DNA of 32,000 nt from an uncultured archaeon. GTDB taxonomy: Archaea; Asgardarchaeota; Thorarchaeia; Thorarchaeales; Thorarchaeaceae. The notes beneath the pieces were generated by a model. The model saw only the letters and a list, made by a program, of their open reading frames with translations, had not been told where the DNA came from and did not search any database. This document shows, one piece after another, positions 22,078-28,745 of this stretch (position 1 is the first letter of the stretch; each line of letters starts with the position of its first letter). The stretch spans positions 60,001 to 92,000 of the forward strand of contig CAZYLT010000010.1 of the NCBI GenBank assembly GCA_964648855.1. Reading direction: 5' to 3'. The position numbers were made by a program, and so were the translations under genes.

Positions 22078-22881
22078 ATGCATGACCATATTCACCAGGA
22101 GCTTTACGCTTCAATAGCTACCTTAGATCAACTCAAGAAGATGTATGACCTTGGTGCGGTTGATATCAGGTCATTCCAGCGGGAATCTGATGCTCTCGTA
22201 AACGAAGTAAAAGGTCATTTGGATGAGATGAGGCGCATGGGTATTGATGTTGGGGGATTCATGGCAGAACAAAGAATCTTAGACGAGTTTCCAGATGCAG
22301 CAGGATTAATCGAATTCTACCAACACAGGTCCAGACCGGCATTAGATGGATACACAATGGATGAATATTACGATCATCTGGGGTTGGCTGTTCTAGATGT
22401 TGCTACTACACACTCTGCGAAAGGCTTGTTGGGTCTAGCGGACCTGATAGTTGAGGTTGTCAACCGTGTGCCGCAGTTCAAGTCAGTCAGCTATAATGAT
22501 GTCATAGAGGCGGTCAATAGGGTCGCAGAAAACGGACTGATTCCAGGGATACGAACTCTACGTGGTGGTGTGAAAGTTGTAGAGCTTCGTCCACTAGAGC
22601 TACGCGGCGACCAATCGGATGTGGTTAATCTTGCAGCTACGAAGGGATATACCTCTGTGGAAGAGGTCATGATGGAGCTCAAATGGTCTGAGGACCACGC
22701 TCGTCAAGTGCTATCAAGTCTAGTTGATGCGGGAATGGCTGTTGCCGATATTCGGTTCAGTACCGGCGGTAGATACTATTTCCCTGGGTTGCATCACAAG
22801 TCCTCAGATAAGGCAAATGGTCATGAAATGCTAGATAGAAGAAGAGATGGCCGAGACTCTCCCCCAGCTCATGGCTTGTAA
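22078..22881 (+). CDS. ESCRT-II Vps22/Vps36 (EAP30)-like tandem winged-helix protein with N-terminal Vps28-like helical domain
   Basis: DEYYDHLGLAVLDV...DVIEAV...PLELRGDQSDVVNLA..KGY...LKW..A..VL..LV..G matches the Vps22/Snf8 pattern; N-terminus ELYASIATLDQLKKMY resembles Vps28. Confidence 0.85.
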   Translation: MHDHIHQELYASIATLDQLKKMYDLGAVDIRSFQRESDALVNEVKGHLDEMRRMGIDVGGFMAEQRILDEFPDAAGLIEFYQHRSRPALDGYTMDEYYDHLGLAVLDVATTHSAKGLLGLADLIVEVVNRVPQFKSVSYNDVIEAVNRVAENGLIPGIRTLRGGVKVVELRPLELRGDQSDVVNLAATKGYTSVEEVMMELKWSEDHARQVLSSLVDAGMAVADIRFSTGGRYYFPGLHHKSSDKANGHEMLDRRRDGRDSPPAHGL

Positions 22882-22895
22882 TTCTATATTCATGC

Positions 22896-23609
22896 CTAAG
22901 AAATACGAATTTTTATTGCCGCCCTTTTCTTGTCTACCCATTCAGCGAGTTCTTGTTCCACTAGAATCCCTAGGACTGTTTTGATTTCATCTTCAGGGAG
23001 ACCTGCAAAATCTTGGTTACTTTCTTGGATTACGAGCGTCTTGACATCCAACCTAGTCTTACCTGTTTCAATAGCCCATGCATAAACGATATCCGCCCAG
23101 TCTTGTATGGGTCTCCAGTAGATCCGAAGCTGTCCATTGTTTTTTCCAATCCATTCAGCAACGTCCTTTTCAACCAGCTTTTCGGCTATGAACCTGAAGG
23201 CCTTGACTTTTCCAAATATGTCGCAAAAGGGCGGTTCAGTAATGAAGGTTGCAAGTGATATTTTGTGTGCCGTATTCCTCTGTGCCCACTCCAAGAGGAA
23301 ATCCCCCCATTCATCTGCCCAGAGATTTCGGTCATCTTCTTCGATAGGGATATGGTACATCAATTCATACTCTTTGACGCTGCCCCATGATGGCAAGAAA
23401 ATCTCGGGTTCAGCTGATACTTCCTCGACAACCTGAGTTTTGAATTCGTCTTTGATGGTCGTTATGTCTTCTTTCTCGTCGATACTGTCCACTTCAATGG
23501 CTTCGACTTCTTGCTCTTCAATTTCATCTGTTCTTGATTCAACTGTTTCTTCTTCTGAACGATCTTTTTCTTTACTCTTCTTCTCTTTTTTGCGCTCTCT
23601 GACTCCCAC
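22896..23609 (-). CDS. vps25: ESCRT-II Vps25-like protein with charged N-terminal extension
   Basis: W.DFLLEWA, AEWI.....LRIYWRPIQDWADIVYAWA..TG, F.GL.E......L..L.....AE, as in Vps25. Confidence 0.88.
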   Translation of the reverse strand: MGVRERKKEKKSKEKDRSEEETVESRTDEIEEQEVEAIEVDSIDEKEDITTIKDEFKTQVVEEVSAEPEIFLPSWGSVKEYELMYHIPIEEDDRNLWADEWGDFLLEWAQRNTAHKISLATFITEPPFCDIFGKVKAFRFIAEKLVEKDVAEWIGKNNGQLRIYWRPIQDWADIVYAWAIETGKTRLDVKTLVIQESNQDFAGLPEDEIKTVLGILVEQELAEWVDKKRAAIKIRIS

Positions 23610-23612
23610 GAA

Positions 23613-24836
23613 CTATGAACCCTCCGCCCATTCTTTGTATCTACGAATGTCTTCAGGCGATGTTGCCGGGCGAATATTTTCAATCGCATTGAGAAAGTCC
23701 AATCTTGACACTGGTCTTAATCTGAAGCCAGCTTTCTCTGTAGGAGGTATATCGCTCTGCAATTCTCTGATAGGTTCCATCGCGGCTTCTCTACATACAA
23801 CGCTGATATCTCTCCCGCTGTATCCCTCTGTCAGGTCAGCAAGCTCATTGAAGTCCACATCTGGTCCGACTTCAATATCATCAATATGTATTTTGAAAAT
23901 CCTGACTCTTGCGGCTTTATTGGGGAGGGGAACATTGATCCTTTTCTCAAATCGGGATCGTAAGGCGAAATCGATGTCCCATGGTAGATTTGTGGCCCCA
24001 ATGAGTGTAACTCTTTCATCACTCTTACTTGTTAGTCCTTGAAGTTCCGTCAACAATTGGGTCTTGAGTCTTCTTTCGCCACCAACATCTTCTCCGCGCC
24101 TTGAAACCCCTATAGAATCAAGCTCATCTATGAATATGATAGATGGCTGGTTGTCGCGCGCAGAATCGAAGAGGTGTTTAACCAATCGCTCTGATTCACC
24201 AAGCCATTTACTCACTATATTTGCTGCTGATACATTGAAGAAGGTGGCATTTACTTCGTTTGCAACCGCCTTGGCAATTAAGGTCTTTCCACAGCCTGCT
24301 GGTCCATAGAGTAGAATGCCTTTCCAAGGCTGCCTAGCCTTGCCTTTGAACAACTCGGGGTGCTTCATGGGTGATATGATGGCATCATGTATAGCCTGTT
24401 TTGCATCATTGAGTCCTGCAACTTCTGACATCTTGACATCAGGGCGCTCGGAGAGGATTGTATCAGAAATCATCTCGTTGAGCCTTATCTCATCCTCATC
24501 TTCCTCTTCAGGCGGGCTACTTGCTGGTTTCTCATGTCTTATACTATCATCATGGATTGGTTCAGGCGGCCTGGCGAGACCCTTTTCTTGTCCCCTAGCT
24601 TTTTTCTTGATGCCCGAAAGATAACGAACCCTATCTACACACTCTTGAGCCCGTTTGAGGTAATGCTTTCGGACTGAAGGGAGACTCGTTGCATTTGAGA
24701 GTTTGATCAATATCTTACTGGCTTTGAGGTATTTTTGACAGGCCTCCTTCTTCAGTCCTCTCTGGTCCAGATCGATAGCTCTGTCGAGGAGTTCTCGTAA
24801 GCCTTTATCGAGTCTAGTTCCATTGGTATCGCTCAT
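23613..24836 (-). CDS. vps4: Vps4 AAA ATPase (MIT + AAA)
   Basis: N-terminal MIT helices, acidic linker, VAGL..AK, PWKGILLYGPAGCGKT, pore loop SKWLGESE, FIDELD, GATN.PW.ID, GYSGRDI. Confidence 0.93.
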   Translation of the reverse strand: MSDTNGTRLDKGLRELLDRAIDLDQRGLKKEACQKYLKASKILIKLSNATSLPSVRKHYLKRAQECVDRVRYLSGIKKKARGQEKGLARPPEPIHDDSIRHEKPASSPPEEEDEDEIRLNEMISDTILSERPDVKMSEVAGLNDAKQAIHDAIISPMKHPELFKGKARQPWKGILLYGPAGCGKTLIAKAVANEVNATFFNVSAANIVSKWLGESERLVKHLFDSARDNQPSIIFIDELDSIGVSRRGEDVGGERRLKTQLLTELQGLTSKSDERVTLIGATNLPWDIDFALRSRFEKRINVPLPNKAARVRIFKIHIDDIEVGPDVDFNELADLTEGYSGRDISVVCREAAMEPIRELQSDIPPTEKAGFRLRPVSRLDFLNAIENIRPATSPEDIRRYKEWAEGS

Positions 24837-25028
24837 TGTTACCCCGTTAGAAAAATGCTGTATTGGTTGTTAAGAGCTTCTGTATTGCCCACAAACTACT
24901 GAGTTTTTCGAAAAGGATGTTTAGAACCGCGCCTTAGAAACACCCGCACAGTTTCATTCCAGATGACTGCGAAGTGTTAAAATGGCATCCATATTATTGA
25001 AAGTGAAGAAGAATCTTACTTCTTCAGG
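24837..25028. promoter_or_regulatory. Divergent promoter region between vps4-vps25 and ESCRT-III
   Basis: 192-nt AT-rich spacer with TTAA-type boxes at about 24870 (minus strand) and about 24977 (plus strand). Confidence 0.4.
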
Positions 25029-25652
25029 GTGAGCAAATTGGGTATCTTCAAGAAAGCCTTCTCGTGGGGACGAAAGAAGCCTGATATCAATGAAGTTACA
25101 AGTCAGCTTCGCGTTCTATCAAAACAACTTGAAAGACAGAGAAACAAGTTGGAAAAAGAAGAACGAGATACAAAGGCAAGAGCCATCAACGCACGAAAGA
25201 ACGGAAACACGGAAGCCTTTCGGACCTATGCAAAGGAAATGGTGAGATTCAGACGTTTTGCTCTCTCAATTGATAAGTCGCGTCTTCAGATTTTGAAGAT
25301 ACTGGCTCATATAACTCGAGCACAAACCACCGCAAAAGCATCCAAGGCCCTTGACGATGTAGCTGATATTTTGGGTCTTCTTGGAGATGCCACGGACACC
25401 TCGAAAGTAATCGAAAATGCAGATGAAATAGCCATGCGGCTGGAAGAGTTCGAGATTGAGAGCGGAATTGCAGGTGAAGCTTTCGACTCCACAACTGAAT
25501 CTGAGGTGACTTCAGATGAATTGAGTGAAGCCATGAGAGAAATAGAGGCTGCCGCCCAAGTAGAGGGTTCTACTACAGGGGCGCATCCGATGACTGAAGC
25601 AGAGGAATTGGAAGAAGCCATCAAGTCATTAGAGAAAGAACTTGGTGTTTGA
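25029..25652 (+). CDS. ESCRT-III (Snf7 domain), Vps2/24/46 (CHMP1-3)-like
   Basis: Amphipathic N-terminus LGIFKKAFSW, LERQ..KLEKEE...K.....ARK.GN.E..R.YAKE.VR, basic N-half and acidic C-half, MIM1-like C-terminal ELEEAIKSL. Confidence 0.9.
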   Translation: MSKLGIFKKAFSWGRKKPDINEVTSQLRVLSKQLERQRNKLEKEERDTKARAINARKNGNTEAFRTYAKEMVRFRRFALSIDKSRLQILKILAHITRAQTTAKASKALDDVADILGLLGDATDTSKVIENADEIAMRLEEFEIESGIAGEAFDSTTESEVTSDELSEAMREIEAAAQVEGSTTGAHPMTEAEELEEAIKSLEKELGV

Positions 25653-25653
25653 A

Positions 25654-27213
25654 TCACCATCGACGATATTCATGGGTGTCGCCATACTGGTCGAGTTCCT
25701 TTCTAATACCATACGAGTCCCGCATCAAACCTCTGTATCTTCTTATGAAGTCTTCAGGTACAATTCTTCCACTGCGGAGTAGGTCTACCGTTTCAGAGAG
25801 AGCGGATTGCAGTTCGCGTTCATTTCTCCTTAATTGCTCGAAACCCATATCGTATCCTTGATTCCTTCGTCTGCTATCTCGATGCCCAAGTGTTCTTCTG
25901 AGCTCCTCAGCCAATTCATCTTCGTATTTCTGCTTCTTTTGGTATCTACTTTGTGGGCTCCAAGGACGGTTCACCTCATCCCGGTATGGCACATAATATC
26001 CTCTCTTTGTTTCGGGAACTTGACTCACCTGATCAGTTGACAGAATCGAGTAGATCAGCTCCTCAATCTTCAATCTCACATCGCTGACATTAACACTGGT
26101 CGCCTCGATCTTTCGTACCCGGTGCATGTCGTCCTGCACGTACCTATCAAACTTCTTTGCGATCTGTATGTAATCTGAGAGGACCTGTTCCGTTTGTTCG
26201 TCACAATCAACTCGAACATCACCCTGCTTTAACTTCAAAACCAATCGTTTTCTGAACCTTCCATCCTCTTCAAGAGATTTGAGATAGGCCAAGGGGAAGT
26301 CGAAGACGACCTCTGTCTTTTTGCGTACTAGTCCAGTTTCTGCAACGAATATGAGACGCTTGTTCGTAATATACAAGATCCCTGTGGTCTTATCATGCTT
26401 CAAGAAGTCGCTCCCACTGAGTTTTATCTCGGGAATTGCACATACAGGAAGCTCGTTTACCGACAGGTCTGAATACTCGTAGAATCCCGCGAAATGCTTC
26501 CTATAGTAGTCAAGACCTTCTAGATGCTCTGTTAGTTCACCCAAATCTAATTCTAGTGCTTGGAGTGAATCGTCAATATTGCTCTTGTATTGTCGTCCGA
26601 TATGAGTTACGCGATTGGTCACGCCCTCAACAAATGGGAATTGACCTGTTTCCCATGTTTGGTAATCAATGAGTCCTTTTGTTTCTGCGAGCATTTTCTT
26701 GGCTACTATCTCGGCTTGGTTTGTAACGCGATTCTTGATAGCTATGAACTCATCTTGAATCTGTTCAACCCTATCTTCGAACCACTTGAAGCCAAGAAAA
26801 TTTGCCATTCTTAATGAAACAAGAATCCTTTTCGCGGAGGCGAGCCTAGTATTGAACTCTCTGAGTTTGGTGTGGCCGTAGTGAATACTCATGACTGCAT
26901 TACGCAGTTCGTGAGCTAGGTTTCTGCGTTTATCTTCAATTCCCGCAATCCGAGTTGAATAGCAATTTGGACATATCTCTTCAATACGTTTTGCAGTAAC
27001 AAAACTCTGTGATTCACACTCAGGACAATTTTCCGGTTGCTCGCCCATTGGAACCCTCCCAATATTATGATGGCACTCTGCGCACATTGTGTATTCGCTT
27101 GATTTTGAATCAAGGCAATTTGTGCATAGCAAAGCGCCACAGTCCTCGCACATATGCGTTGAGCGATTATCGCCACAAAGGCTGCAATAATTCGATGGTG
27201 AACCTTTTGTCAA
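25654..27213 (-). CDS. Zn-finger / coiled-coil / PH(GRAM/GLUE-like) / steadiness-box-like protein, candidate ESCRT-I subunit or adaptor
   Basis: Six CxxC pairs in the first 84 aa, heptad region, GILYITNKRLIF...DFPL..L PH-like strands, C-terminal DLLRSGRIVPEDFIRRYR.L hairpin. GGAGG RBS before TTG 27213. Confidence 0.75.
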   Translation of the reverse strand: MTKGSPSNYCSLCGDNRSTHMCEDCGALLCTNCLDSKSSEYTMCAECHHNIGRVPMGEQPENCPECESQSFVTAKRIEEICPNCYSTRIAGIEDKRRNLAHELRNAVMSIHYGHTKLREFNTRLASAKRILVSLRMANFLGFKWFEDRVEQIQDEFIAIKNRVTNQAEIVAKKMLAETKGLIDYQTWETGQFPFVEGVTNRVTHIGRQYKSNIDDSLQALELDLGELTEHLEGLDYYRKHFAGFYEYSDLSVNELPVCAIPEIKLSGSDFLKHDKTTGILYITNKRLIFVAETGLVRKKTEVVFDFPLAYLKSLEEDGRFRKRLVLKLKQGDVRVDCDEQTEQVLSDYIQIAKKFDRYVQDDMHRVRKIEATSVNVSDVRLKIEELIYSILSTDQVSQVPETKRGYYVPYRDEVNRPWSPQSRYQKKQKYEDELAEELRRTLGHRDSRRRNQGYDMGFEQLRRNERELQSALSETVDLLRSGRIVPEDFIRRYRGLMRDSYGIRKELDQYGDTHEYRRW

Positions 27214-27359
27214 ATACGTGCCTCCGGCTTGTCACGTTATTAGGAATATACCCTAAGAATAACGTGTGTATTATTCTACTAATACTTGCATGGCCAACTG
27301 CACAGTACGAATTAGTTATAATATCAGGTTTTTCAAGCAGAAATCAGGACGAAAACACT

Positions 27360-28745
27360 ATGGAGGACTTGGCAAACGCAGCGATTGCTGCAGCTCTAGA
27401 TGAGGGCGTCGAATTTGTTGATGTTCGTGTAGAAGACACTCAAACAACAATTATTGAAATCAGTGATGGCGTTACAAAACGGTCCATGGCCGCCCATCTG
27501 AAAGGTGCGGGAATACGAGCATTTGTTGATGGCTCATGGGGATTCAGCCAAACGACGGATTTGACTAGGGCTGGCATGAAGAAAGCTGGTGCATCTGTTG
27601 CAAAATTGGCACTTGCTACGCGAGAAAAAGTATCTGCTCATTTTGAAATAGACGGCCCCTCAAACAAGGCTAGATCTCCCATTTCAGTCAAGATTCCATT
27701 CTCAGATATCCACTTTGAGGACAAAATTGGGTTTGCTAAGTATATTGATGAACAGGCACAATCATACGATGATCGGATTGCTAACACACGGACAATATAT
27801 GGCGACCTCCAAACTGAGCTCTATATTGTAAATTCATTTGGAACCTCCGTATACACCGAAAACTCACTTCCAAGAATCATTTCGTCATTGACCGCAACAG
27901 ATGGAAAAAACCGAAGAAGGGCGTCCGAGTCAATTGGCATTAGAAGCGGATTTGAGTTCACAGAATCCGAAGAGGCCCAGTCCATAGGGTCTTCCACTGC
28001 AGAGCTTGTCATAGACTTGCTTTCTTCAAAAGCAGCACCTGGTGGAGTCTTCGATGTTGTCGTGGACCCCGTGCTTAATGGCGTGATGGTTCATGAGGCA
28101 TTTGGCCACGCCTGCGAGGCTGATAATTGGCCAGCACATACCACCGTACTTGAAGATAAGATTGGAAAAGAAGTAGGTCCTGAACAATTGAATATCACGG
28201 ACAATCCAAAATTGCGTGGCAAACGAGGGAGTTTTGATTTCGATTGGGAAGGAACCCCGACAAGAAAGAGGACTCTGGTCAAAGATGGTGTTCTAACAGA
28301 GTTGCTGCATGATTTAGAAACCAGCTCCAGGCTCGAAATGGACGTTAATGGTGCTGCTCGAGCACAATCGTTTATGCATCCTCCTGTCCCTCGAATGAGC
28401 AATACATACATGGAGCCCGGTGATTGGGACGTAGATGAACTTATAGCTGATACAGAATCTGGCATATTGCTTTGTAGATTCAATTATGGCTATACTGAAC
28501 CAGCAAAGGGTCAATTTATGTTTCAGGCAGGTCATGGATACATGATAGAGGGCGGCGAGCTTGGTCATATGGTGAGAGACGTATCTATTGCAGGTCATAT
28601 CTTAGATATTCTGGCAAAGGTTGATGCCATTGGATCTGATTTTGAATTAGACGCAGGAAACTGTGGAAAAGGCGGCCAGGTTGTACCTGATATGAGTGGA
28701 GGCCCACATGCACGAATTCGTAATGTCCCTGTTGGAGGGATGTGA
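27360..28745 (+). CDS. tldD: TldD metalloprotease
   Basis: GAGIRA, HEAFGH metal site, PRMSNTY, CGKGGQ..P...GGPH. Start moved to ATG 27360 because the longer ORF overlaps the opposite-strand gene. Confidence 0.93.
   Translation: MEDLANAAIAAALDEGVEFVDVRVEDTQTTIIEISDGVTKRSMAAHLKGAGIRAFVDGSWGFSQTTDLTRAGMKKAGASVAKLALATREKVSAHFEIDGPSNKARSPISVKIPFSDIHFEDKIGFAKYIDEQAQSYDDRIANTRTIYGDLQTELYIVNSFGTSVYTENSLPRIISSLTATDGKNRRRASESIGIRSGFEFTESEEAQSIGSSTAELVIDLLSSKAAPGGVFDVVVDPVLNGVMVHEAFGHACEADNWPAHTTVLEDKIGKEVGPEQLNITDNPKLRGKRGSFDFDWEGTPTRKRTLVKDGVLTELLHDLETSSRLEMDVNGAARAQSFMHPPVPRMSNTYMEPGDWDVDELIADTESGILLCRFNYGYTEPAKGQFMFQAGHGYMIEGGELGHMVRDVSIAGHILDILAKVDAIGSDFELDAGNCGKGGQVVPDMSGGPHARIRNVPVGGM

Follow-up and report, generated by a model that had tools for sequence, protein, structure and literature searches.

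A conserved Thorarchaeota ESCRT gene cluster encoding a Vps28N::Vps22 fusion and a Znr_CC_PH_SB protein

Five adjacent ESCRT genes in a thorarchaeal genome

[quoted passage not shown] The cluster lies at positions 22078 to 27213 of a 32,000-nucleotide stretch of contig CAZYLT010000010.1; this whole stretch is referred to as the window, and coordinates are those of the window unless another contig is named. Five adjacent open reading frames (ORFs) fill the region, and they encode a Vps28N::Vps22 fusion protein, Vps25, Vps4, an ESCRT-III subunit (Snf7) and a 519-residue protein of the type named Znr_CC_PH_SB for its Zn ribbons, coiled coil, PH domain and steadiness box. An earlier reading of this DNA, made without database searches (the sequence-only reading), had described five contiguous genes here, and all of the ORFs were found where it had placed them.

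The Vps28N::Vps22 fusion protein

The gene at 22078..22881 (+ strand) encodes a protein of 267 residues (P0001), which corresponds to "Vps22#" of Makarova et al. (2024). Its residues 92-224 match the Pfam model EAP30 (Vps22/36) with an E-value of 3.9e-13. Two winged-helix domains, the ESCRT-II core, occupy residues 92-234 (22351..22779, +) according to Pfam, an AlphaFold2 (AF2) model and Foldseek, and they are preceded by a Vps28 N-terminal domain, the headpiece hairpin, at residues 4-81 (22087..22320, +), which was delimited by hhalign against canonical Asgard Vps28. The AF2 model, built on a 32-sequence alignment, has a predicted local distance difference test score (pLDDT) of 80 and consists of a helical hairpin (helices 2-24 and 30-53), short helices up to residue 83 and then the two winged helices; in the hairpin itself (residues 2-53) the pLDDT is above 89. 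The top Foldseek matches were human VPS22 (2zme_A and 3cuq_A, E 6e-9) and yeast Vps22 (1u5t_A), at E-values from 6e-9 to 1e-6, and Vps36 ranked lower.

Among Thorarchaeota, the identity of this protein is 55-96%. The first 80 residues are strongly conserved and contain the motif ELYASIATLDQLKK, with which the canonical Vps28 proteins of other Asgard genomes also begin (shared pattern ELYxxIATLDxL). Comparison of residues 1-92 with five canonical Asgard Vps28 sequences by hhalign gave a probability of 98.7% and an E-value of 2e-16 over 78 columns. The match is confined to Vps28 residues 25-102; thus, the C-terminal four-helix domain of Vps28, which contacts ESCRT-II, was not found in the fusion protein. 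A direct Pfam scan of the hairpin yielded VPS28 only below threshold (E 0.11), and the yeast Vps28 N-terminal domain in PDB matched it weakly in profile comparisons (E 0.16-0.3); an orthologue from the sister family (43% identical) reaches the curated Pfam VPS28 cut-off with 24.6 bits. Tandem winged helices of the EAP30/Vps22 type and a hairpin of the Vps28-N/steadiness-box type, the two marks of Vps22#, are both present in this one polypeptide. The sequence-only reading had called the protein a Vps28N-Vps22/36 fusion, and this description is correct because of the hhalign match to Vps28 and the sister-family orthologue at the Pfam VPS28 cut-off; the EAP30 match in Pfam and the top rank of Vps22 in Foldseek agree with it.

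The Znr_CC_PH_SB protein

At the other end of the cluster, the gene at 25654..27213 (- strand) encodes the 519-residue protein (P0002), which an alignment of homologues and an AF2 model place in the type of the Asgard cluster of orthologous genes (asCOG) cog.011556. Pfam gave only weak matches to this protein, to B-box and bPH, and its identity among Thorarchaeota is 46-93%. The N-terminal part (residues 7-91; 26941..27195, -) contains 12 conserved cysteines in the CxxC pairs 11/14, 22/25, 30/33, 44/47, 63/66 and 81/84, all of them invariant or near-invariant in the alignment, which would be enough for three Zn-binding sites; the same region has weak Pfam matches to DZR, B-box and Prok-RING_4. 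Since the first Zn site precedes the first ATG, its conservation backs the TTG start at 27213.

The AF2 model of this protein (pLDDT 79.5) runs from small beta-ribbons, which extend to residue 91, through long helices to a beta-sandwich with a C-terminal helix (residues 256-353), a disordered linker and a final hairpin. The long helical (coiled-coil) region covers residues 92-246 (26476..26940, -), and its helices 92-138, 143-178 and 189-246 have pLDDT values of 85-96. The sandwich (26155..26448, -) is a PH domain of the GRAM/GLUE type according to Foldseek, which matched it to the PH-GRAM domain of MTMR2 (1zsq and 1lw3, with a root-mean-square deviation of 3.1-3.5 over about 115 columns), to the PH-like domain of Lam6 and to the GLUE domain of EAP45 (2dx5_A, with a target-normalized TM-score, TMt, of 0.66). 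Weak Pfam matches at the same place were to bPH_3, GRAM and Vps36_ESCRT-II. Neither Pfam nor the AF2 model revealed a UEV domain in this protein.

The C-terminal hairpin (residues 456-518; 25660..25848, -) consists of helices 456-481 and 486-518, is modeled with a pLDDT of 93-96 and is steadiness-box-like according to the AF2 model and profile matches. A direct Pfam scan of this hairpin returned no steadiness-box match. In orthologues from another Asgard family, the C-terminus is at the Pfam Vps23_core cut-off (26.8-31 bits), and the C-termini of these Vps23_core-positive orthologues matched the Thorarchaeota profile with an E-value of 2.4e-5 in hhalign. Via this orthology, we identify the hairpin as a steadiness box with moderate confidence. 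Three Zn ribbons, a coiled coil with a PH domain and, at that moderate strength, a C-terminal steadiness box are the parts of a Znr_CC_PH_SB protein. This domain order had been proposed from the sequence, and the CxxC pairs, the AF2 model, the PH matches in Foldseek and the orthologues at the Vps23_core cut-off all support it.

Predicted pairing of the two hairpins

It had further been suggested that the products of the two outermost genes pair through their hairpins. Complex prediction with residues 1-92 of the fusion protein and residues 455-519 of the Znr_CC_PH_SB protein is consistent with this suggestion: the interaction prediction score from aligned errors (ipSAE) was 0.66, 0.65 and 0.66 in three runs, versus 0.22 for the best of three controls. 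At least 94% of the contacts were common to the runs, the pLDDT of the partners was at least 77, and the predicted interface joins residues 3-40 of the fusion protein with residues 476-505 of its partner. An ipSAE of 0.66 is attained in 58 of 80 solved complexes but in just 2 of 110 mismatched pairs; this calibration applies approximately here, because the hairpin prediction used own alignments. The score of the hairpin pair may partly reflect likeness to the solved structures of the ESCRT-I headpiece. The prediction thus supports, rather than shows, binding of the Vps28-N hairpin to the steadiness box.

The other genes of the cluster and its flanks

Between the two outer genes are those for Vps25 (P0003, 237 residues; 22896..23609, -), with the Pfam domain ESCRT-II (PF05871) at residues 94-186 (E 4e-13); the Vps4 ATPase (P0005, 407 residues; 23613..24836, -), with the Pfam domains MIT, AAA, lid and Vps4_C; and the ESCRT-III subunit of the Snf7 family (P0004, 207 residues; 25029..25652, +), with Pfam Snf7 (E 4.3e-10). 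The domains of all three proteins are above the Pfam cut-off, the three genes are linked, and their order is repeated in a relative (genome L048). At its N-terminus, Vps25 is extended by some 90 residues, a strongly acidic stretch rich in Lys and Glu. Pfam assigned no family to this extension, which is probably disordered and looks so rather than like a steadiness box; N-terminal subdomains on Asgard Vps25 were mentioned by Makarova et al. (2024, PMC10936438).

The strands of the genes indicate that the cluster is not a single operon. The vps4 and vps25 genes are co-directional and 3 bases apart; the Vps22 gene is convergent with vps25, and the ESCRT-III gene is divergent from vps4 and convergent with the gene for the 519-residue protein. 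A promoter and terminator scan of the bacterial type, a method unsuited to archaea, gave results at chance level.

The cluster is flanked by a gene for a class II tRNA synthetase of the aspartyl/asparaginyl type and by a TldD/PmbA pair (Pfam). For the first TldD/PmbA gene, the longest ORF (27009-28745, +) has a GTG start, encodes 578 residues and overlaps the 5' end of the gene for the 519-residue protein by about 200 bases. Relatives of this TldD/PmbA protein have about 461 residues, and the Pfam domains of the 578-residue ORF start at residue 137. Its true start is probably near 27360, in which case the overlap would not be real.

Conservation of the cluster and spread of the two architectures

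Nearly all named homologues of the two outer proteins are from Candidatus Thorarchaeota. In five Thorarchaeota assemblies, the NCBI locus tags in the match lists put the homologues of the outer genes at a distance of four genes (four assemblies) or five genes (one assembly). The arrangement TldD-TldD-[Znr_CC_PH_SB]-Snf7-Vps4-Vps25-EAP30-AspRS recurs unchanged in the Thorarchaeota genome L048, in which the orthologue of the 519-residue protein has about 50% identity. Thus, in the synteny comparison that the sequence-only reading had proposed, the cluster is kept in relatives together with both outer genes. In another lineage of the phylum, a 31%-identical homologue of Znr_CC_PH_SB adjoins two Snf7 genes, and no ESCRT genes neighbor a distant homologue (L051).

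The two architectures differ in their spread. Znr_CC_PH_SB is present in 202 of the 301 Asgard genomes sampled, including 73 of 76 from the host's own family. The profile of the fusion protein, which was searched in a sample of 121 genomes, matched over its full length only in the host genome, in 16 of 17 sampled relatives from the same family and in the one genome from the sister family. In all other Asgard families, the winged-helix part of this profile matches a Vps22 of about 250 residues, and its first 85 positions match the N-terminal end of a Vps28 that is encoded separately and has about 220 residues; outside the Thor order, these separate vps28 and vps22 genes are often adjacent. The Vps28N::Vps22 fusion is therefore confined to the Thor order in this sample. 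Pfam VPS28 was found in nearly all other Asgard families; in the Thor family it was found in 6 of 76 genomes, as weak matches. The proposal that ESCRT-I and ESCRT-II modules were shuffled into two fusion proteins consequently stands for the Vps28N::Vps22 fusion and falls for Znr_CC_PH_SB, which is widespread in Asgard archaea.

The N-terminal hairpin might also have a role of another kind: it could serve only for self-association of Vps22, or for pairing with a long Vps22 paralogue (see below), and replace the helical contacts between Vps22 and Vps36, with no link to Znr_CC_PH_SB. Self-interaction of Thorarchaeota Vps22 in a two-hybrid assay (Hatano et al. 2022, PMC9192718) would fit such a role, as would the Foldseek alignments, in which 215-250 columns of the model are aligned with eukaryotic Vps22, a protein that also has N-terminal helices. 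Similarly, the profile of the fusion family aligns from about position 34-41 onward with some other Asgard Vps22 proteins. However, the hairpin resembles Vps28 specifically (E 2e-16), its part of the profile matches a separate vps28, and not vps22, in other Asgard lineages, and the predicted complex with the steadiness box passed its controls. We therefore consider this other role of the hairpin very improbable.

Ubiquitin, UEV and canonical Vps28

The sequence-only reading had pointed out that the window contains no ubiquitin or UEV gene, and our Pfam searches of the window likewise found neither. The genome search that it had proposed extends the result for ubiquitin: PF00240 had no match at E <= 1 in the host genome and none in 61 genomes of the host's family, whereas it matched all five other Asgard genomes that served as positive controls. 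This agrees with the earlier statement that Thorarchaeota seemingly lack ubiquitin (Hatano et al. 2022, PMC9192718). The VPS28 model PF03997 also had no match at E <= 1 in the host genome.

The single weak UEV match in the host genome is an E2-like gene in a defense-type operon. This operon (contig C42, 5272-7607; the contig is 9.2 kb long) encodes an E2-like protein (146 residues), a ThiF/E1-like protein (287 residues) and a JAB protein (336 residues); it adjoins cas1 and cas2, and genes for CARF-like and NYN-domain proteins are located upstream. Its products match the PADLOC models for defense-type E2, E1-E2 and JAB proteins, and no ubiquitin-like gene was seen. In view of the cas1, cas2, CARF and NYN neighbors and the defense-type matches, we rejected these genes as a hidden ubiquitin pathway linked to ESCRT.

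ESCRT-III and Vps4 divide cells in Sulfolobales, and the cluster could accordingly serve cytokinesis, like the Cdv system of TACK archaea, and not vesicle budding or protein sorting. That the cargo signal ubiquitin was not found in the host genome or the 61 family genomes would be in keeping with such a function. The host nevertheless encodes three proteins of the tubulin/FtsZ family, two of them with strong matches, which argues against ESCRT as the only division machinery; moreover, the cluster contains no CdvA-type protein, and the PH domain and Zn ribbons of its 519-residue protein suggest targeting. A cytokinetic role of the cluster is thus improbable in our view.

ESCRT-related genes elsewhere in the genome

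The sequence-only reading had pictured the cluster as a compact supercomplex. In this respect, the cluster is not complete in itself: the genome carries another ESCRT-III gene, a long Vps22 paralogue and further ESCRT-related genes at other places. The second Snf7 paralogue (contig C5, 2840-3490; 216 residues, E 7e-15) is unlinked to the cluster and lies beside genes for an inositol monophosphatase and a HAD hydrolase. The long Vps22/EAP30 paralogue (P0349; contig C5, 44604-47072) is encoded by an ORF of 822 codons with EAP30 at its C-terminal end; it probably starts at M47, which gives 776 residues. Its N-terminal part is coiled-coil and beta-rich and has no assigned family. Of the 17 family members sampled, 11 have this protein at full length, and so does the sister family. 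The EAP30 part of the paralogue is nearer to canonical Asgard Vps22 than that of the fusion protein is, and the paralogue may form the other arm of ESCRT-II.

Three further genes encode helical proteins. P0347 (contig C7, 37591-38946) is an all-helical protein of about 415 residues. Orthologues of about 410 residues in some Thorarchaeota score 21-25.6 bits against Pfam VPS28, which is about the cut-off, and the host's own copy has no Pfam match. P0347 probably belongs to the published BAR-SB or Vps28-BAR family of Thorarchaeota; a Vps28 fused to a BAR domain was reported in Thorarchaeia (Eme et al. 2023, PMC10307638), and Makarova et al. (2024, PMC10936438) also include a Thorarchaeota BAR-SB protein in their Table S3. 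We rejected P0347 as a true Vps28, given an hhalign probability of 0.35% against canonical Asgard Vps28. P0348 and P0345 are small helical proteins of 107 and 76 residues encoded in tandem (contig C24, 2645-2968 and 3636-3866), next to zinc-transport and NikR genes. They carry the motif KKAGxIGxEEFxxxY, which resembles that of the steadiness-box hairpin, and 58 of the 61 family genomes contain a homologue of the small protein with G-I-G-x-E-E-F-x-x-x-Y. An hmmsearch within the genome linked these two proteins to the steadiness box with an E-value of 9e-4, but the hhalign probability against the steadiness-box profile was 0.4%; we therefore did not accept them as steadiness boxes and treat them as a lead only.

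The eukaryotic ESCRT-I headpiece needs three hairpins, and two are predicted to pack here; P0345 and P0348 received no hhalign support as the third. Conceivably, the main partner of the steadiness box in Znr_CC_PH_SB is a hairpin protein encoded elsewhere (P0347, or P0348 and P0345), and the Vps28-N hairpin of the Vps22 fusion is then the third headpiece member or plays no part. Such a partner would suit the two-hybrid interaction that Hatano et al. (2022, PMC9192718) report for the Thorarchaeota steadiness-box protein with a "Vps28", and also the presence in the host genome of P0347, whose orthologues in certain relatives score close to the Pfam VPS28 cut-off, and the wide occurrence of the small protein in the family. 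On the other side, hhalign linked neither the P0347 family to canonical Asgard Vps28 nor P0348 to the steadiness-box profile, the genes for both proteins are located away from the ESCRT genes, and the hairpin fused to Vps22 is by far the nearest homologue of Vps28-N in the genome and scores well with the steadiness box. On balance, a main partner encoded elsewhere appears unlikely to us, although it is the alternative that we take most seriously.

Proposed mechanism

We assign a probability of about 0.72 to the reading that the locus is a conserved Thorarchaeota ESCRT cluster working as follows. The 519-residue Znr_CC_PH_SB protein would be the ESCRT-I-like arm, in which the Zn ribbons and the GRAM/GLUE-type PH domain would engage the membrane or cargo and the coiled coil would act as a stalk. 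Its steadiness box is predicted to pack onto the Vps28-N hairpin, which is covalently joined to the winged-helix core of Vps22, and a peptide bond would thereby stand in for the contact between the Vps28 C-terminal domain and ESCRT-II. By analogy with the eukaryotic pathway and published Asgard two-hybrid data, the Vps22 core would bind Vps25, Vps25 would nucleate ESCRT-III, and Vps4 would take the ESCRT-III polymer apart. Yeast two-hybrid assays detected binding of a Lokiarchaeota steadiness-box protein to Vps22 and of Vps25 to ESCRT-IIIB (Hatano et al. 2022, PMC9192718). Recruitment of the machinery would proceed without ubiquitin or a UEV domain.

Several points weigh against this reading. 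The steadiness box of the host's own copy is below threshold in comparisons with yeast Vps23 (E 0.1-0.4 against 2p22_A, 2f66_A and 2caz_A), and its identification comes from orthologues. The pairing of the hairpins comes from one in-silico prediction, and two of the three hairpins of a eukaryotic headpiece are accounted for in the cluster. The second ESCRT-III gene and the long Vps22 paralogue, both outside the cluster, bear on the composition of the complex. The negative result for UEV (0 of 61 family genomes) comes from a weak test, since the Pfam model was positive in only 2 of 5 controls. Finally, the steadiness box may have another or an additional partner, because Hatano et al. report the two-hybrid interaction of the Thorarchaeota steadiness-box protein with "Vps28" (PMC9192718).

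Relation to known systems

Both outer proteins have published counterparts. Znr_PH_CC_SB (cog.011556) was described as a likely ancestral component of Asgard ESCRT-I (Makarova et al. 2024, mBio, PMC10936438). The 519-residue protein shares with this family its size class and its succession of domains, from three Zn ribbons through a coiled coil and a PH domain to a C-terminal steadiness box, with nothing essential different; its spread in the sampled genomes and the predicted partner of the steadiness box are what the present analysis adds. The same paper stated that Asgard Vps22 is fused to a steadiness box, and its Table S3 lists Thorarchaeota Vps22 KXH75178.1 ("Vps22#", cog.002769), residues 1-70 of which match PF03997 with an HHpred probability of 99. 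The fusion protein described here shares the Vps28-N hairpin and the two winged helices with KXH75178.1. However, the paper gives the fusion for Asgard Vps22 in general, whereas full-length matches were limited here to the Thor family and its sister family among the 121 genomes.

The clusters of Loki-, Heimdall-, Odin- and Helarchaeota (PMC9192718) share the Vps25-Vps4-ESCRT-III core and its linkage with the present cluster, and the interaction of the steadiness-box protein with Vps22 comes from one of these lineages. Unlike the Thor family, they have separate vps23, vps28 and vps22 genes and ubiquitin. In the eukaryotic ESCRT-I headpiece (2p22, 2f66 and 2caz), the steadiness box of Vps23, the N-terminal domain of Vps28 and the C-terminal domain of Vps37 come together; homologous hairpins are present here, clearly so for Vps28-N and more weakly for the steadiness box, and they are predicted to pack. 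A PH (GLUE-like) domain and Zn fingers at the membrane or cargo end are also common to this cluster and eukaryotic ESCRT-I/II. In contrast to eukaryotic ESCRT-I, the cluster has no UEV domain, ubiquitin or Vps28 C-terminal domain, the part that in eukaryotes makes the bridge to ESCRT-II through Vps36, and no Vps37 was identified in it. The PH domain here is on the Vps23-like subunit instead of Vps36: eukaryotic Vps36 combines the GLUE domain and winged helices in one chain, whereas here the PH domain is on Znr_CC_PH_SB and the winged helices are on the fusion protein, in which ESCRT-I and ESCRT-II are covalently joined.

The novelty implied in the sequence-only reading is not borne out. Publications of 2022-2024 had already covered both fusion architectures and the missing ubiquitin of this lineage: Znr_CC_PH_SB and the Thorarchaeota Vps22 with its fused Vps28-N/steadiness-box hairpin in PMC10936438, and the absence of ubiquitin and the Lokiarchaeota interaction of the steadiness-box protein with Vps22 in PMC9192718. 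The increments made here are the in-silico support for pairing of the steadiness box with Vps28-N and the confinement of the fusion to the Thor order in the sample.

An evolutionary scenario can be proposed, tentatively and with considerable doubt. An adjacent vps28-vps22 pair may have fused in the Thor order, with loss of the Vps28 C-terminal domain and the first Vps22 helices, in a lineage with no detectable ubiquitin, UEV or canonical Vps28; the outcome would be a ubiquitin-independent, covalently merged ESCRT-I/II that is recruited by the Zn-ribbon/PH end of Znr_CC_PH_SB. If true, this would be a natural experiment indicating that a peptide bond can replace the contact of the Vps28 C-terminal domain with ESCRT-II, and the lineage restriction and paired losses would be a modest refinement of the published description of Vps22 fused to a steadiness box in Asgard archaea generally.

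Because Asgard ESCRT proteins are the nearest prokaryotic relatives of the eukaryotic sorting machinery, it is of interest how ESCRT-I, ESCRT-II and ubiquitin became linked. The locus cleanly illustrates how Thorarchaeota solved this, with a fused ESCRT-I/II and without ubiquitin, and could be a simple system for reconstitution.

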